Origin: Candidatus Binatia bacterium
GTDB lineage: Bacteria > Desulfobacterota > Binatia > UBA9968 > JAJDTQ01
Direction of reading: 5' to 3'
Length of the DNA stretch: 64,000 nucleotides
Assembly (NCBI GenBank): GCA_963666515.2
Contig: OY762897.2
Location: 4,032,001-4,096,000 of the forward strand
Both the position numbers and the translations under genes were made by a program. How positions within the stretch are numbered: position 1 is the first letter of the stretch; every line of letters begins with the position of its first letter. Positions 55,446-62,683 of this stretch are shown here, one piece after another. Below the pieces are notes generated by a model. It had not been told where the DNA came from, ran no database searches, and worked only from the letters and a program-made list of their open reading frames with translations.

Positions 55446-55655
55446 ATGTCACGCACTACCGTCAACATCGACGATGAGGCGTGCACGGAAGTCATGCGCC
55501 GTTATGGACTGTCTACCAAGCGGGAAGCTGTGAACCTTGCGCTACGAGCGCTCGCACAAGAGCCTTTCAATATACATGGGGCACGGCGTCTCGGTGGGCC
55601 GGGATGGGAGGGTGATCTCGAACAGTTTCGCGTCGGCGACTCGTGTTCCCGATAA
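55446..55655 (+). CDS. VapB-like antitoxin, no intact toxin downstream
   Basis: MSRTTVNIDD...TKREAVNLALR...GWEGDL. Confidence 0.8.
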   Translation: MSRTTVNIDDEACTEVMRRYGLSTKREAVNLALRALAQEPFNIHGARRLGGPGWEGDLEQFRVGDSCSR

Positions 55656-55755: not shown

Positions 55756-56484
55756 TCACGTCGAGAACGGTTTGAACACATTCAAGAGTAGGAGCTCGAT
55801 ATGGTAGGTGACGGCGTTCGCTCCGATCTTTAGCGAATTCGGGTGACTGCAGCCGTTCCGGAGGTTGAGGCAGGCTGCTAGTTCGGCCTTTACGTTTTTC
55901 CCAATCACAGAGATCGCAGCTATGCGGTCAAGAAAATCTGCCTCTCCCATTCGCCCGAGGTCGTCAGTGGTTTTTGCTGTCTTCCACTTTAAGTCAACGC
56001 GTTTCGCTTCCGTGTTGAACGCCTTCAAGTGGTTGACGAATACGTGTTGCCGAAGGACATCGACGGCCGCGAGCCACGACATTACTATAGCCGATCGAAA
56101 GAGATGGGCCTCGTAACACTTGATCGCCTCTTCGACAAAGGCGTAGGTATCGGGGTTGCCGATCTTTGCGAGTTCCTCCCGAAGCTCTGTGGCGACTTTG
56201 GCCTGAGCCGAGTTTCCGATTGGTAAACCGAGCTGACGAAGCCGTTCCAGGCCTGTTTCAGTAATTTCCCAACCGCTCGGCGTGCGGATTGCGAGCCCTT
56301 TAGATCTCCGAAGAATATTGGATACGTTCCACGTCTTCGGAATACGCATGCCGCCTTCGGCCGCCCGCACACCAATCTCGTGGACTTGGCAGCCCTCAAC
56401 AAATGTTGCGAGGACCACGAGCAGCTTGTCTAGACGAGAAATATCGCGATGAAGCCAAGTTTTGAGATCGGTCTTAGATATCAC
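55756..56484 (-). CDS. Hypothetical protein with an N-terminal winged-helix-like region and a C-terminal HEPN-like domain
   Basis: 242 aa, GTG start after AAGGAAG. EEAIKCYE...RSAIVMSW helix and RNGCSH (RxxxxH) motif near the C-terminus. Confidence 0.75.
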   Translation of the reverse strand: MISKTDLKTWLHRDISRLDKLLVVLATFVEGCQVHEIGVRAAEGGMRIPKTWNVSNILRRSKGLAIRTPSGWEITETGLERLRQLGLPIGNSAQAKVATELREELAKIGNPDTYAFVEEAIKCYEAHLFRSAIVMSWLAAVDVLRQHVFVNHLKAFNTEAKRVDLKWKTAKTTDDLGRMGEADFLDRIAAISVIGKNVKAELAACLNLRNGCSHPNSLKIGANAVTYHIELLLLNVFKPFST

Positions 56485-56521
56485 GCGCCAGCTTCCTTGC
56501 TCAATTGGCGGGAATTATAAA

Positions 56522-58186
56522 CTCGATTGTTGCAAAAACCACGGCTGAATTTAAGAGTCAGGCGCGGGGCGTGAGGGCTGCGAGGGCGTGACGCAGTTCT
56601 GCTTCGAGATTCGGATTGGTATTCATCGACAGGATGAGCTTGCCGGCGGGGCGAATGATACGTCCGGCTCGTTGAATGAGGGTACGGCGCAGGGTTCCGA
56701 TTTCGCGGAAGCACCACAGGGCGGGGCGCTTGGCTGTGGTGGAACGCTCACGGGGGTGGATTCGCATCTGGAGTTCGCGGGTGAGGTTGTGAGCGAGGAT
56801 GCTGGCGAACATGTACAACTGGTTCCCGACGCGTGTTTTGACGGGCACGTAGCCCATTTGGCAGTGGGACTTCAACTCGGCGAAGATACCCTCTTGGGAT
56901 CCCCGTCCTTCGTGGAAGAGCGCCACGTTGCGTGGGCGGATTCTCTTGTTGGTGACGATGACCTTGAACTCGTACCCATGGGAGACCGGCTTGAAGAGGT
57001 CGAGTTGGATTTCCTCCTTGTCCTGGTATCGGACGGGTTTTCTGATGAAGACGAAGCGATAGCGGGTGTTCCAGGACTTGGGCTTCCAGCGGGTCTCGAA
57101 GTAGCCGAGTCCATTGGCCATGGGCCGCCATCGTTGTCTGCCTTCGATCATCCCCTTCAGTTCGGCCAAGCGCTCGAAGGGCACCGAGACGGTGAAGGTG
57201 ACACCCAGGGAGTGAAGCCGGTCGACGATATCCCTGCTGAAGAAGGCGCTGTCCATGCGCACCTCGATCCTGGCCCGGGGCAGGCTTGCGCGCACGGTGC
57301 ACACACAGCCCTGGATGAAGGCATCGGCGCCCTTGGAGTCATGGACGTTTCCCGGCCGATGGTGCACGTCGAGCACCTGGTCGGTCTGGGCCACGGTGCA
57401 AAACAGGGGGTAGTAGCTGCGCGCCCCTTTCTTCTTCTTGTTGAACCCCACCGCGGTGCCCTCGGCGTGGCGCCCGGTGCTCAAGACCGAGCCGTCGAAG
57501 TCCAGGGTGATAGTCGCGAAACCTTCGGCCACCAGGCGCTCGATGACCACCGTTCTCGACTCGGCGCGGACGTTGTCGACGCTGCACGCGTCGGCACTCT
57601 TCAGCGAGCGGCTCACGGTAGACACGTCCGGCAAGCGTTTCAGCCCAAGCAACCGCCGGACCAGTTCATCATCCCGGTAGTACGCCAAGTCTTGCAACTG
57701 TCGGTGTCCGATGATGAGATGCACCACCAGCAGCAGCAACACGACGTGGTGACCGTAGATCGGATTGGCTTTCAGGTGGCGGAAGCACCGCCCCAGCCGC
57801 TCCTTGAGACCCAGGTGGGAAAAGAAGCACTGAAAGAGGATGAGCCCCGAATACGATGTCAGTTTCTGCGGCTCGAATCGAACCTCCATGCCCAGCGTGG
57901 CTTTACCTCGAACCGCGGTTCTGCTAAGTTTCATTTCGTGGTCTCCGTTTCATCGGGTATTGGGATGATACCAACGATGATTATATCAGTTTCGGAGACC
58001 ACATCCTTGAGCTCACCTCGTTTTGTTCGAAAAAATGTCGCAACAACCCCCCTCGATTTTATCTCACGGGCGGCTGTGGCTTAGCTTCACAGATGGTGAG
58101 CCTGAGCTATTTGCCGTATGACACCGGAGAGCCTTTGTAGGACGGCCTGAGCGGGCTCTTCAAGAGGGCGTTTTGCAACTGACGGG
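56522..58186 (-). mobile_element. IS1380-family insertion sequence (1665 bp)
   Basis: 4-bp duplication TAAA at 56518-56521 and 58187-58190. Terminal IRs CTCGATTGTTGCAAAA / CCCGTCAGTTGCAAAA (12/16). Confidence 0.88.
56558..57934 (-). CDS. IS1380 family transposase
   Basis: 458 aa intact. LTSYSGL, TLDFDGS, YYPL, RPGNVH, VRMDSAF and RGSQEGIFAELK. Confidence 0.93.
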   Translation of the reverse strand: MKLSRTAVRGKATLGMEVRFEPQKLTSYSGLILFQCFFSHLGLKERLGRCFRHLKANPIYGHHVVLLLLVVHLIIGHRQLQDLAYYRDDELVRRLLGLKRLPDVSTVSRSLKSADACSVDNVRAESRTVVIERLVAEGFATITLDFDGSVLSTGRHAEGTAVGFNKKKKGARSYYPLFCTVAQTDQVLDVHHRPGNVHDSKGADAFIQGCVCTVRASLPRARIEVRMDSAFFSRDIVDRLHSLGVTFTVSVPFERLAELKGMIEGRQRWRPMANGLGYFETRWKPKSWNTRYRFVFIRKPVRYQDKEEIQLDLFKPVSHGYEFKVIVTNKRIRPRNVALFHEGRGSQEGIFAELKSHCQMGYVPVKTRVGNQLYMFASILAHNLTRELQMRIHPRERSTTAKRPALWCFREIGTLRRTLIQRAGRIIRPAGKLILSMNTNPNLEAELRHALAALTPRA

Positions 58187-58251
58187 TAAAGAATACTTGA
58201 ATACGCTCCGTGATCCTGTAGGTTCTCTAAATCAACTCAAGGGAGTATGCA

Positions 58252-59225
58252 ATGGGTAACCAGCAAGCACCGGGCAAGGCTTACAGAGAGGGGCTTTCGG
58301 TATTCGAGTTGTTCGAGATGTCCCGGACGAAGCGGCCTGTCGCTGGTTCGAGGGTGCCCGGTAGGCAGCTGGCCGGTACTGCGGGCACTGCGGTTCCGAG
58401 GACACCCACGAGGCTCCCAATGAGAAGCCTATGCCCTACCGCTGCCGGACTGCCGCAAGTACTTCAGCGTCAAGGTCGGAACGCCTATGGAATCCAGCAA
58501 GCTCCCGCTCCGCAAGTGGGTGGTCGCCGTGTACCTGATGACCACGGACCTGAAGGGCGTTTCCTCGATGAAGATGCACCGCGACTTGAAGGTCTCGCAG
58601 CCTACCGCGTGGTTCATGATTCACCGCATCCGCGAAGCATGGAACATGGACGGCGGTAAGCCTTTCCTGGGTTCGGTGGAAGTGGACGAGACCTACATGG
58701 GCGGCAAAGAGCGGAACAAGCACAACTCCAAGAAGCTCAAGGCCCGCGGGCCGGTCGGCAAGGCTGCGGCGGTGGGGATGAGGGACCGGGACAGCAACAC
58801 GGTCAGCGCGGCCGTCGTGAACAGCACGGACCGCCAGACCCTCCAGGGCGTCGTGCCATACCAGACGGCCCCGAGGGCACGGGTCTTTACCGACGAACAC
58901 GGGCCTACCGGAGTCTCCCGAATCACCAGACCGTCAAGCGCAGCGTGGGCGAGTACGTGGACGGCATGGCGCTCACACCAACGGCATCGAGTCCTTCTGG
59001 TCGTTGCTCAAGCGCGGCTACAAGGGCACCTACCACAAGATATGCGCCAAGCATCTTCAGCGCTACGTCAACGAGTTCGCCGGGCGGCACAACGTCCGGT
59101 CTAGGGACACCCTGGAGCAGATGCGCGCCGTCGCCTGCGGGTTCACCGGGAAGCCGTTGCGGCTCCAGGACCTGATCGCCAGCCCGGACAAGGACGTGCC
59201 CGTCGCGGGTAGCGGCGTGTTCTGA
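58252..59225 (+). pseudogene. IS1595 family transposase, multiply frameshifted
   Basis: Pieces lie in different frames: APGKAYREG..., zinc ribbon CGHCGS...YRC/DCRKYFS, VEVDETYMGG, VFTDE, HTNGIESFWSLLKRG and HLQRYVNEF...LRLQDLI. At least four frameshifts. Confidence 0.9.
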
Positions 59226-59546
59226 TAAACCTAAACCAGGGAAGGAAGGCTCCAATGGGTGAAACACAGGACTGTATCCGAAATCGTGGAATGTCCGGCG
59301 GGAGTTGATCAACAGCATCCTAGACCACGGCAACACACTAGTTGAATCTCTCAAGCGGGTACCGGAGACGCGGAGCGAGTTGACGCCTGAACGATGGAAG
59401 GGTATCTTCTCGGAAGAATTGAGGAAAGCGATGGCCCGCTACGGCAACGGTGAACCCCTACTTTCCGAGTAGGAACTGGTCACCCCGCCTGCATCACCAA
59501 CCCCGGCTGCGGTCGGTGATAATCCCCCAACATAGATGAGGCTTGC

Positions 59547-59900
59547 ATGGAATGGCTCTCAGAACTTCCTTCCTGGATATGGATCCTGACTTCTCTCCTC
59601 ACTAGCGGATGGATAGCATGTAAAGTTTCCCTTAAGGGGAGCTTCGAGGGAGAAGATCTAGCCTTCATTGTTTACTGGCTAGGGTTGGTCGCAATCATAA
59701 TCGTTCCGCAAATATGGCGGGATCCTCCCAGGATTGTTGTGATCGCTCCTGTTGCTATGGAGAAAGCAGAAGAGGAGCGCATCCGGATGCAATGCATGAT
59801 GGAAGCAATGGACCGGACCGCCACTGAAGGGGGCCCGGTGCTCCTTCGCTACAACCAAGCCTGCCTTGTGCAACATGGCTTTGTCTTGAAAGAGCGGTAG
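59547..59900 (+). CDS. Small membrane protein, passenger of the IS1595 element
   Basis: 117 aa with two hydrophobic segments and a C-terminal Cys pair. GAGG RBS. Confidence 0.6.
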   Translation: MEWLSELPSWIWILTSLLTSGWIACKVSLKGSFEGEDLAFIVYWLGLVAIIIVPQIWRDPPRIVVIAPVAMEKAEEERIRMQCMMEAMDRTATEGGPVLLRYNQACLVQHGFVLKER

Positions 59901-60031
59901 CGGCTGCGACTTCAGGACCTGACCGAACTGCTAATCCGGCAAGGCCACGGCCGTCCCTATGACGGCGGACGACGGCGGGGGTGGTGCTTCTGACCTTTGA
60001 CCTGACGGGCCGCTGGTGGTAGTGTGGCGTG

Positions 60032-60184
60032 ATGCCTACGAAGCCCGCCAAGAGACCGAAGCCCGAACACCGCCCGATGCCGGAGGATCCGCGCGTGCTG
60101 GCACGGGCGATGTTCCGGGCGGCTGATAGGAAGATCAACAAAGAGCGGGCAGCGGAGGAGAAGCCCGCTGCCCAAGAGGGCTAG
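60032..60184 (+). CDS. 50-aa basic ORF near the right end of the IS1595 element
   Basis: MPTKPAKRPKPEHRPMPEDPRVLARAMFRAADRKINKERAAEEKPAAQEG*, directly after a TTGACC-N17-TAGTGT promoter-like sequence. Confidence 0.5.
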   Translation: MPTKPAKRPKPEHRPMPEDPRVLARAMFRAADRKINKERAAEEKPAAQEG

Positions 60185-60221
60185 GTTCGCCCCTCTAATC
60201 TACCGGCGCAAATCAGTGCCA

Positions 60222-61001
60222 TCAACTGTTCTTTATAATTCCCCAATTGGCAGTTGTGTAGACCCATACATGCTTTCCGTTTACCTCTTCCTTTTTGCGC
60301 TTGAGGCGACTGTCCCGAACCGCTTTCAGAAGGTACTTTGGAAGGCTCGTCTGTTTGACAATAATGCCACGCTCATGAAAGCGCTCCTCCAGTTGACCCA
60401 GGGTCCTTCCAACGTCGAAGAAACCGTCGGTCAGGACTTCATCGAAGACGGCTCCGGGGCGGTGACCTGGTTGTGTTGAACCCTTCGCACTCCTTGTTGG
60501 CGTTTGCTTGAGTTCCGACTCACCGTTCAGGTCTGTCGTGGTTTCGGCATGAGAATCGTTTGGATTCTTCTTGTTAGATCGCTTCTTGTGACTGGTGCTT
60601 TTTTTTGAGGGGTTCGAAACGCTGTCCTTTCGGCCAAGTTCCAGCCTGATCGCATCCAGGGCCGAAGGACGGATTGTGTATTTCCCCGATCTCGCTGTCA
60701 GAAGATTTCGGTCTTTCAGGTCCTTCAGCACCGGCCGTAGGCTACCGCCTTGTATCCCCAGCAACTCTTCCATACGCGAAGGTGCCACCTCTACGTCAAT
60801 TGCTTCGTCCAGGACAAATTGCCAACCTTGCTGGGCGACGAGGAAGATTAGTATCTTCGCCCTGCTCGAAAGCATTGTTGCGTTTGGCGTAAAGACGGTT
60901 TCGCGCTCGTCAGTGTCGTAGCGGACGTAATCGGAGATGATCGACTCAATTGCGTCCTCGGTCAGCTTAGCTTTCTGTGCGACGAGATCTTTCAATGCCA
61001 T
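60222..61001 (-). CDS. Hypothetical protein with two winged-helix-like domains and a Lys/Ser-rich linker; the last 7 residues come from the IS end
   Basis: 259 aa from ATG 61001. ELLGIQGGSLRPVLKDLKDRNLL...GKYTI and GFFDVGRTLGQL...TSLPKYLLKAVR...VWVY are wHTH-like patterns. Confidence 0.75.
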   Translation of the reverse strand: MALKDLVAQKAKLTEDAIESIISDYVRYDTDERETVFTPNATMLSSRAKILIFLVAQQGWQFVLDEAIDVEVAPSRMEELLGIQGGSLRPVLKDLKDRNLLTARSGKYTIRPSALDAIRLELGRKDSVSNPSKKSTSHKKRSNKKNPNDSHAETTTDLNGESELKQTPTRSAKGSTQPGHRPGAVFDEVLTDGFFDVGRTLGQLEERFHERGIIVKQTSLPKYLLKAVRDSRLKRKKEEVNGKHVWVYTTANWGIIKNS

Positions 61002-61026
61002 AGGAATAGACCTTTCTGTATGGATA

Positions 61027-61066
61027 ACACGAATACACGAATACACGAATATCTGTGCCTTGTCAA
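61027..61066 (-). promoter_or_regulatory. Sigma70-like promoter overlapped by three tandem 8-bp direct repeats
   Basis: Minus strand reads TTGACA (61066-61061) then ATTCGTGT x3 (61050-61027), covering the expected -10 position. Confidence 0.6.
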
Positions 61067-61243: not shown

Positions 61244-62335
61244 CTAATCCATTGTCCTCCAGCTTAACCTGGCCTTCAGGCCGTTCAGGTGCGTCCAGGG
61301 AAGAAGCCGTCGGTGCTGAAGCATGCCGACCACGATACCCGGGGCAATCCCCTGCTCATCGGCAAATTCCCGAACGGCCACTTCACTGAACAGCAGTGCG
61401 GCAATGAATTGCTCCCACGGACGTTGAGGGATCAGGATGTTGGATGCCCACTCATTCGCCTCTGCTTCCAACCCCGCGTCTTCTCCATAAACCTCGTCAA
61501 CAAAAATTTGTCTCTTGCTGTGAAGAAGAATATGCGCCGCTTCATGGAAGAAGCTAAACCATAAATGGTCATCGGACTTGTGGCGCGCACTTAGCTGAAT
61601 AACGGCCTTCCTTGGCGTGAGCCATTTGGCTGCACCGCTAACGGCGGTCTTTGGCAGTGGAGGTACTAGCGCAAGGGCAACGCCCGCCTCATTGCATAGC
61701 CTTTCAACCTGTTGCAGAGCCTCGCCCGTCGGCTCCCGCGTCAGCCCGCGGATACTCCGAACCGCATACCTAAACCGGCGTTCGTTGTATTCCGCACAAT
61801 GCTGGCGTTCGGCTTCGAGTTCACCGAGCCGAAGCCAAGTGACCAATGCCACCTTGTCGCTCTTGAAGCTTGGGGAGTGCCGAAAGGCGACGTTCGCGAG
61901 ACCATAGCGTCCGGTCCATGCGGCGATTGAACCGACGCCGAAGAACGCGAGTAACTTCGATACTGTATCGGTATCGGAGTCCGGGCGTTGGAAACAATCT
62001 CGCTTGACCAACTCCCGGACCGGAAAGGCCTTGGCCCAGTCCACCGCCGCAGCCGCGTCCTTGGCCTCAGCCTCCCGAGCCCTGCGAAGTTGATAGTCGG
62101 ACTCGATCCCAAGCCAGATGCTGGCATCAACGCCAAGCACCTTCTCGAACTGGAGTGCCGTTTCCGGTTCGAGCGGTGCCTTACCTGCGATGATCTCGCT
62201 GATCAGCTTGGGGGAGCGTCCGCACCTGCGTGCGAACTGGGCGTGCGAAATTCCTTGGACTTCCAGGCGCTCCTCAAGGAGCCATCCTGGCGGAACCGCA
62301 TAGTCCGGCTTGTATTGGTTGGTCGCCGTCGCCAT
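61244..62335 (-). CDS. higA: HigA-like HTH antitoxin fused to an ImmA/IrrE-type metallopeptidase domain
   Basis: VPPGWLL, HTH (SHAQFARRCGRSPKLISEII), WLGIE and C-terminal WFSFFHEAAH (HExxH) ... EAEANEWA. Confidence 0.88.
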   Translation of the reverse strand: MATATNQYKPDYAVPPGWLLEERLEVQGISHAQFARRCGRSPKLISEIIAGKAPLEPETALQFEKVLGVDASIWLGIESDYQLRRAREAEAKDAAAAVDWAKAFPVRELVKRDCFQRPDSDTDTVSKLLAFFGVGSIAAWTGRYGLANVAFRHSPSFKSDKVALVTWLRLGELEAERQHCAEYNERRFRYAVRSIRGLTREPTGEALQQVERLCNEAGVALALVPPLPKTAVSGAAKWLTPRKAVIQLSARHKSDDHLWFSFFHEAAHILLHSKRQIFVDEVYGEDAGLEAEANEWASNILIPQRPWEQFIAALLFSEVAVREFADEQGIAPGIVVGMLQHRRLLPWTHLNGLKARLSWRTMD

Positions 62336-62347
62336 GTGTCTCCTCCC

Positions 62348-62683
62348 TTAGTGATAGTCGATCACGTCCAAGATCGTGATCGCGGTGACTTGTTGCGTGT
62401 CGATCCCTCCTTCGTCCTTACAAGGAGGTGGCTGGTGACTGGGTTCGAAAACGAGCCGATGGGGGTGAACGAGATCCACTGCGAATTGCCCCTCCCGAGC
62501 GCCGCTGAGCTGATGTCGTCTCTCCGGTCTGGTAGACGGTACCAAGGCCAGATTGCGGGCGGTCTTGAGAACCGCCATCCGCATCATGATGACCTTGGCC
62601 ATCTGCGCCCCATAGGTCTTCCGGAGCGCAGCCACCGTGTTGAAGGTCCTTTCGAGTTTGCGGGTACGGAAAGCGATGTCCAT
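62348..62683 (-). CDS. higB: HigB-like (RelE-fold, 'killer protein') toxin
   Basis: RRHQLSGAREGQFAVDLVHPHRLVF and C-terminal VIDYH. Confidence 0.88.
   Translation of the reverse strand: MDIAFRTRKLERTFNTVAALRKTYGAQMAKVIMMRMAVLKTARNLALVPSTRPERRHQLSGAREGQFAVDLVHPHRLVFEPSHQPPPCKDEGGIDTQQVTAITILDVIDYH

Follow-up and report, generated by a model that had tools for sequence, protein, structure and literature searches.

Genes A and B, two reading frames that lie 3.7 kb apart on the minus strand of a Candidatus Binatia bacterium genome, are one operon that has been split by nested insertion sequences (IS). Both are contained in a 64,000-nucleotide stretch of contig OY762897.2 (positions 4,032,001 to 4,096,000 of the forward strand), which we call the window and whose own numbering is used throughout. 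According to its structural model, A consists of two winged helices with a basic, disordered linker between them; B is modelled as a winged helix followed by a HEPN domain, an assignment of domains that we regard as solid. The operon with its empty site, the protein folds, the conserved motif, a conserved promoter repeat and the gene orders were all computed from the data described below. The pairing of A with B is real but a minority combination. The best explanation for the gene orders appears to be a modular family, in which small winged-helix proteins (A, an unrelated protein of ~168 amino acids (aa) here called 'short', and a type of ~176 aa) precede effectors with a B-like winged helix, the effector domain being an AF_1680 HEPN domain, a Ymh HEPN domain or a domain with an invariant Rx6H pair. 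We consider it moderately likely that A and B constitute an RNase module of the toxin-antitoxin (TA) or abortive-infection kind.

An operon split by nested insertion sequences

The inserted DNA (56510-60243, 3734 bp) sits between two 8-bp copies of CAATTGGC and ends in perfect 12-nt terminal inverted repeats (56510-56521 and 60232-60243). Removal of this DNA together with one repeat copy gives an empty-site model in which a stop codon directly follows N252 of A and a 16-nt spacer leads to B (Table 1). The preliminary description of this DNA, made from its letters alone, had deduced this very junction, a natural stop for an A of 252 aa, a 16-nt spacer with the ribosome-binding site (RBS) of B and, as a consequence, a single operon behind two 'hypotheticals'; all of this is borne out. 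A second assembly carries on one 270,312-bp contig an A of 252 aa (P0123, one residue different) and a B that is called as 257 aa (P0372), and the coordinate model encodes P0372 letter for letter whereas the unmodified window does not. Since the 15 extra N-terminal residues of P0372 are readable only across the joined site, they provide natural proof of the empty site. Moreover, one contig of run X2 joins 56501 to 60244 and thereby skips 3742 nt, the sum of 3734 and 8, with eight letters that fit both sides; at a depth of 9.2 and with a short side of just 22 letters this contig is weak evidence when taken alone. In the same run IS-occupied contigs are present at depth 13-23 alongside this one apparent empty-site contig, and the insertion may be polymorphic in the X2 sample.

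As a result of the insertion the present-day A frame continues for 7 extra codons inside the IS to a stop at 60222-60224 (259-aa form, P0371), so that A retains all of its 252 residues and gains 7, while B retains its RBS and now lies 3.7 kb from A's promoter. The rebuilt locus has the gene layout of type II TA systems, with two small co-directional genes, a short spacer or overlap, and the putative antitoxin first.

Two elements make up the inserted DNA. Duplications of 8 bp are typical of the IS1595 family, and the outer element encodes an IS1595-family transposase in two pieces. The nested IS1380-family copy is flanked by TAAA at 56518-56521 and 58187-58190; its ends and the 4-bp duplications were set by comparing genomic copies, and such duplications are also found in 3 of 6 other full IS1380 copies checked. 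Excised in silico, it leaves a 2065-bp outer element with termini matching at 20 of 22 positions. From these termini, the TAAA duplication and the nested position it follows that the IS1595-family element entered at A's stop codon first and that the IS1380-family element later inserted into its terminal repeat. The outer element has extra open reading frames (ORFs), for example at 59547-59900 (117 aa, no family match), and a longer relative of it, 82-84% similar, is present in the same genome (G000:C1:4324484-4327772). This genome also has six further IS1380 copies whose rounded identity is 100%, another at 95%, and some partial ones. The IS1380 element exists in at least seven full copies (L002-L008 region set), and in four metagenome runs its summed contig depth is ~4-25x that of flanking genes; overall the data suggest an element that is multi-copy and currently active. 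Its transposase gene is co-oriented with B and no terminator-like site was found on the minus strand before B, and it is thus possible that B is transcribed by read-through from the IS1380 transposase gene.

With G+C contents of 52.5% and 53.4%, respectively, A and B differ from the flanks (66-69%), and a low-G+C islet spans about 55.6-62.8 kb; the count of 26 G+C in 60 nt at 60541-60600, given earlier as a sign of AT-richness, is exact. Within the window's own phylum B was found in 5 of 400 other sampled genomes, all at 23-33% identity, and the closest relatives in the genome collection are mostly Alphaproteobacteria. The module thus reads as a small, horizontally moving cassette on a low-G+C islet.

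Table 1. Features of the A-B locus and of the DNA inserted in it (window positions)
Feature	Position	Strand	Remarks
Gene A	60246-61001	minus	252 codons; ends ...VYTTAN, last codon AAT
Gene B	55756-56484	minus	242 aa, GTG start
RBS of gene B, AAGGAAG	56492-56498	minus	8 nt ahead of GTG; read from sequence
Target-site duplication, copy 1, CAATTGGC (+ strand)	60244-60251		repeat comparison
Target-site duplication, copy 2, CAATTGGC	56502-56509		with A56501 gives gene A's natural TGA in the empty site
TTGACA, candidate -35 box of the A-B promoter	61061-61066	minus	sequence reading
8-nt tandem repeat in three perfect copies (coding strand ATTCGTGT), candidate operator of A	61027-61051	minus	TRF
B wHTH domain (residues 12-88)	56221-56451	minus	
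B HEPN domain (residues 107-242)	55759-56166	minus	
B RNGCSH motif (residues 209-214)	55843-55860	minus	
Outer IS1595-family element, main body	58191-60243		holds frameshifted transposase and passenger ORFs
IS1595-family transposase pieces	58487-59104 and 59004-59225	plus	NF033547, E 3.9e-32 and 1.8e-5, two frames
Cut-off terminal repeat of the outer IS1595-family element	56510-56521		inverted-repeat and copy comparison
Nested IS1380-family element	56522-58186	minus	1665 bp; NF033539, E 4.5e-71
IS1380 transposase gene	56558-57934	minus	

Domains and conserved residues of B and A

In the AlphaFold model of B (pLDDT 96) the N-terminal winged helix-turn-helix (wHTH) domain matches PadR/MarR winged helices in VIA-align (Z ~8). 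The C-terminal domain has the four-helix up-and-down fold of HEPN proteins and is closest to AF_0298 (Z 11.7, rmsd 2.5 over 112 aa), followed by Roquin (10.7), AbiA (10.5), the HepT-type SO_3166 (9.4) and sacsin (9.3), the listed HEPN range being 11.7-8.5; Csm6 was found at Z 8.6 and 7.3. In Foldseek, too, HEPN proteins rank first (E 0.1-0.5). The domain contains the HEPN motif Rx4-6H as R209-N-G-C-S-H214, and W137, R209, N210, H214 and P215 are the sole invariant residues of B over 87 sequences of 33-73% identity, which upholds the initial assignment of RNGCSH as a HEPN motif. RxxxxH is the HEPN RNase signature and is common in toxins and abortive-infection effectors; B is predicted to have RNase activity, which would be metal-independent as in the HEPN superfamily. 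At the sequence level a B profile matches 'Dandelion-hepn' among PDB sequences (E 1.2e-4, aligned across the motif), and B matches PD-T7-3 of PADLOC over a 41-residue stretch (E 3.4e-4). The PDB entry 'Dandelion' probably belongs to the same family as PD-T7-3, also known as DARNA, which is the nearest characterised sequence relative of B's HEPN domain.

Neither A nor B matches a family at thresholds, or a named system, in Pfam-A, NCBIfam or PADLOC-DB 2.0. The statement that the pair is not a recognised system therefore stands for these three collections, but has to be amended for B, since a precomputed match assigns the window's B (P0003) and all 120 listed relatives to PF27235.1, and the nearest ESM-Atlas clusters of B are 100% PF27235. 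This family is AF_1680, a name only and uncharacterised in Pfam 38.1. A word-indexed search gave 1110 relatives of B; at E <= 0.001 the family comprises 902 representative clusters (50% identity level), 182 of which reach 1e-30. The literature searched describes no function, partner or operon for AF_1680 and no wHTH-HEPN module, and the term 'wHTH-HEPN' does not occur in the accessible part of PMC11090510. Behind other N-terminal regions, 150-260 aa long, the AF_1680-type HEPN domain is found as well (P0279, P0340, P0343 and seven more), and in 10 of 10 of these longer representatives the fused N-terminal region has no Pfam match. The HEPN domain is therefore a mobile module in its own right.

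The AlphaFold model of A (pLDDT 79) and VIA-align agree with the original description of two wHTH-like domains and a basic linker. The N-terminal domain (about residues 37-126) is of the Crp/MarR type, with a Crp-family match of Z 8.5 on residues 37-122, and the C-terminal domain (residues 178-252) resembles Fur/PadR DNA-binding domains (Z 9.6-9.1 on residues 175-252); between them the linker (126-179) is basic, disordered and variable in the alignment. The protein collection contains 98 relatives of A, its own entry included. Co-folding of A and B scored 0.00, below the mark, a result that speaks neither for nor against. In two loci (L120, 2284-3835; L121, 3495-5046) A is divided into two genes, one for each winged-helix half, that flank a ~250-aa effector gene, which indicates that A's domains can work as separate proteins.

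Partners of A and B and the A-led promoter

Gene neighbourhoods were compared for B in the best 80 of 161 confirmed loci on one-genome-per-species contigs; a search with the B sequence alone had given no confirmed relative in genome contigs, and alignment-based searches succeeded. A lies directly upstream of B in 2 of these 80 loci (L015 and L016). The upstream gene is 'short' in 72 of the 80, or 72 of the 75 that have an upstream same-strand ORF, and in most loci its stop overlaps the start of B, by ~17 nt. 'Short' is itself a wHTH protein. The third, ~176-aa protein precedes 'short' in nine 'short'-B loci, and in three B loci weak A-like ORFs are found nearby.

Seen from A, the partners vary too. 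Of the 30 A loci compared, 11 come from genomes and 19 from metagenomes, and some are near-duplicates (L110/L111, L120/L121 and L102/L122); 26 are informative, and the other 4 run off a contig edge. Among the informative loci, A is followed by B in 5, by a different ~250-aa effector in 17, by a 362-387-aa Ymh-domain protein (PF09509, E about 2e-11) in 2, and by no recognised partner in the last 2. Hence 24 of the 26 have a same-strand follower with a B-like wHTH domain, and in 7 of them, five with B and two with Ymh, the follower has a recognised HEPN domain, Ymh being a HEPN family according to the accessible part of PMC3710099. In the Ymh effectors the B-like winged helix is N-terminal (E 2.1e-4). 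The ~250-aa effector has an invariant R...H pair with Rx6H spacing and a C-terminal winged helix that aligns with the N-terminal one of B (E 1.6e-4). This winged helix is the sole match between the effector profile and B, leaving the N-terminal domain unmatched; among PDB sequences the profile finds MarR-type wHTH matches only, and with the Ymh protein it has no match. ESM-Atlas leads from the effector to Ymh and to DUF4145 had scores of just 0.77 and 0.76. The profile comparisons with B, PDB and Ymh thus gave no sequence tie between the N-terminal domain of the ~250-aa effector and HEPN. Many A loci with this effector begin with a ~160-aa protein that is related to 'short' (probability 93.6%). 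Nor was homology of 'short' to A supported, the profile comparison being non-significant (E 0.028, probability 1.8%); it shows only that winged helices occupy analogous places.

Among the 150 best B representatives there is one gene call each for a fusion of the two kinds of partner to a B homologue: in P0222 the C-terminal winged helix of A is fused in frame, and in P0229 it is 'short'. They could be genuine fusions or stem from frameshifts in the assemblies. Contigs equal in size to that of one of the 120 listed B homologues carry 17 of the 97 other A homologues, an indirect sign of linkage that concerns mostly A's closest relatives. The A tree needs at least two partner switches and the B tree at least three, of which well-supported branches force just one each; partner swapping among the module genes is therefore suggested rather than demonstrated. 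With respect to the proposed two-gene system, the A-B order does recur in the A loci, but A precedes B in very few of the B loci. As A and B are not a fixed pair, the unit would be a modular family and not one two-gene system.

A second regularity concerns the region upstream of A. Tandem repeats (GTGTATNN, two or three copies) are present at the same place in 13 of 14 loci in which A is the first gene, and are absent in 8 of 8 loci in which another gene precedes A. In the window TRF reports them with period 8, 3.1 copies and 100% matches. The pattern GTGTATNNGTGT has 20 matches in 2.33 Mb of compared sequence, all of them just upstream of an A gene, and the repeat is kept at A identities down to about 41%, whichever effector gene follows. 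Six of the 14 A-led loci, among them that of the window, have TTGACA just 5' of the repeats. By eye, the upstream regions of 'short'-led and s160-led operons share no common repeat. The conservation of the repeat at A-led promoters regardless of the effector, together with the two wHTH domains of A, makes it likely that A is an autoregulator and the repeats its candidate operator, the binding itself being a prediction.

Could A and B then be ordinary, non-toxic regulators, the HEPN fold of B serving in ligand or RNA binding or in mild RNA processing, and the pair controlling genes of the islet? An operator-like repeat that is conserved, the DNA-binding winged-helix folds in both proteins, and the presence of MtlR/YggD-type HEPN regulators in B's fold list at Z 8.0 would all fit. 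Such a role would leave unexplained why R-N-x3-H-P is invariant over 87 diverse sequences. The module also moves between genomic contexts that are unrelated and have no conserved target genes, and around B loci conservation does not extend beyond the module. In addition, other proteins with a B-like wHTH can follow A at the operon position of B, and two of these carry a Ymh HEPN domain. We therefore regard an ordinary regulatory role as quite unlikely.

Comparison with known systems and possible functions

For the RNase module that we favour, the following course of events is conceivable. The operon would have been acquired on the low-G+C islet, and A would bind the three tandem ATTCGTGT repeats at the promoter and thereby repress the operon. 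A would also hold B inactive, or gate it, by way of the winged-helix handle of the effector; if A were lost or diverted, B would be freed, RNA would be cut and growth would stop. Insertion of the IS1595-family element at A's stop and then of IS1380 would have uncoupled B from A's promoter. In this scheme we infer the RNase activity and toxicity of B, the binding of A to DNA and to B, and any part in phage defence.

Several known systems resemble the pair in part. HepT-MntA is like A-B in that the gene of a small HEPN RNase toxin, one with the Rx4-6H motif, adjoins that of a neutralising partner; for A-B these roles are predictions. In HepT-MntA a nucleotidyltransferase partners the toxin and AMPylates it, whereas A is two winged helices with no nucleotidyltransferase family match in Pfam-A, NCBIfam or PADLOC, and B differs from HepT by its extra N-terminal winged helix. 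AbiE also has a winged-helix antitoxin upstream of the toxin, and AbiEi autoregulates via repeats at its own promoter. Its toxin AbiEii, however, is a nucleotidyltransferase and not a HEPN protein, and A has no AbiEi match; 'short' has a weak one (E 0.005). In Csx1/Csm6, as in B, an HTH domain precedes HEPN in one chain, and Csm6 is among the structural matches of B, but B has neither a CARF domain nor a CRISPR context and its control would lie with partner proteins rather than with cyclic oligoadenylate.

Two further systems are described in the accessible parts of recent reports. DARNA (PD-T7-3) is a HEPN tRNA anticodon nuclease of abortive infection, a single chain of 456 aa with HEPN at its N-terminus and a large Pds5-like domain at its C-terminus, which forms a dodecamer and is switched on by single-stranded DNA that phage SSB presents (bioRxiv 10.64898/2026.02.22.705581). 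Compared with this description B is different in that it has 242 aa, carries its HEPN domain at the C-terminus and has a partner gene. In retron type IX (Retron-Kva2) the toxicity of a HEPN nuclease is lessened by a winged-helix protein on its own, which covers the active site of the nuclease, and the system needs a reverse transcriptase and msDNA, its HEPN protein being without the Rx4-6H motif (bioRxiv 10.64898/2026.07.14.738597). As far as this account goes, it is the nearest precedent in mechanism for what we propose for A or 'short', namely a winged-helix antitoxin that acts on a HEPN nuclease by covering its active site. No PADLOC retron model is matched by A, B or the two genes upstream, and family scans of the proteins at 55.4-62.7 kb found no reverse transcriptase, their matches being transposases, a HigA-peptidase and VapB; noncoding RNA was not searched for there.

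The likeness to these abortive-infection effectors also raises the possibility of a dedicated anti-phage system, in which a phage nucleic acid or protein, sensed by the winged-helix proteins, would make them release the HEPN RNase during infection only. Besides PD-T7-3/DARNA and retron type IX, as the available parts of their reports present them, this possibility is favoured by the PD-Lambda-2_B homologue of the islet (E 1.5e-36), by some B loci that adjoin integrases, methylases or MADS genes, and by the shuffling of partner genes and effector domains, which is common in defence systems. On the other hand, no component matches a system of PADLOC-DB 2.0, and the enrichment in defence islands to which the preliminary description had looked did not emerge as a clear signal at the immediate neighbours of B loci (at most 11 of 116 ORFs; 116 of 144 selected ORFs, from 59 B loci). 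On balance we hold a dedicated anti-phage system to be possible but somewhat unlikely.

A number of observations weigh against the TA or abortive-infection module as well. The immediate neighbours of B loci are mostly housekeeping genes, with 4 integrases, 4 DNA methylases and 3 MADS matches; a search of 50,697 phage records did not turn up B, and plasmids gave only distant HEPN-domain matches to it. Every Foldseek E-value is 0.1 or worse, B is tied only weakly by sequence (E about 1e-4) to the HEPN nucleases that have been characterised, and non-toxic regulators such as MtlR are HEPN-folded too. TTGACA is not followed by a canonical -10, and a consensus scan accordingly called no full sigma-70 promoter at the repeats. 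Finally, both A and B occur for the most part with other partners, so that no specific fit between A and B is shown.

The neighbouring genes of the islet suggest yet another arrangement. Directly upstream of A-B lie, on the same strand, two genes (61244-62683, minus). The nearer one encodes a protein of 363 aa that has an M78/ImmA peptidase domain and a HigA-like HTH and matches PD-Lambda-2_B and HigA (TIGR02607, E 7.4e-14). It is preceded by an ORF of 111 aa, at the position that a HigB-like gene has in PD-lambda-2. We presume a likeness of this 111-aa protein to HigB; it has no match in Pfam, NCBIfam or PDB sequences, and its PADLOC row is at chance level (E 0.027). In principle A-B could be the third part of a larger PD-lambda-2-like system, replacing the third component next to the 111-aa and HTH-peptidase genes. 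All four genes lie on one strand of the islet, and an A homologue in locus L097 is near a 375-aa HTH protein of the same cluster; furthermore, PD-lambda-2 requires a third gene for defence, as stated in the accessible part of PMC9519451. Among the PD-lambda-2 models component B is matched, by the 363-aa neighbour, and the 111-aa protein, A and B match none. Yet A has its own candidate -35 box and operator, 240 bp after the peptidase gene. Since, in addition, the 111-aa protein belongs to no recognised family and the HTH cluster is absent from the compared flanks of all five other A-B loci, we consider membership in such a system highly improbable. At the other edge of the islet, 100 bp from the stop of B, ends a VapB antitoxin gene (55446-55655, plus; PF09957, E 3.8e-15) with no VapC-like ORF after it. 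This position suggests that the islet may have replaced VapB's toxin gene.

Returning to the modular family, one may tentatively go further, though at a confidence well short of that in the A-B RNase module. A, 'short' and the ~176-aa protein could be interchangeable adaptors that dock on the winged-helix handle of the effector and belong to an undescribed, widespread class of abortive-infection systems. Nucleic-acid sensing by the adaptor, and not a small molecule or covalent modification, would then switch HEPN on, and the class would have at least three RNase-type effectors, namely AF_1680-HEPN, Ymh-HEPN and a permuted Rx6H domain with winged helix.

What appears to be new here is the conserved tandem repeat at A-led promoters and the predicted swappable winged-helix partners of the AF_1680 family. 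Genes annotated as unrelated hypotheticals can be one operon masked by nested IS elements, and in this case IS-split and intact alleles in one population would provide a natural allele pair, just as the candidate operator provides a testable target for A. As executioners, HEPN RNases recur in CRISPR, retron, Abi and TA systems, and the way in which they are restrained differs between these systems. The B family, with its 902 clusters, now gains a partner logic of putatively swappable winged-helix proteins. If these adaptors prove to be sensors or antitoxins, they would represent a new mode of control for HEPN nucleases and a new family for the catalogues of defence systems.

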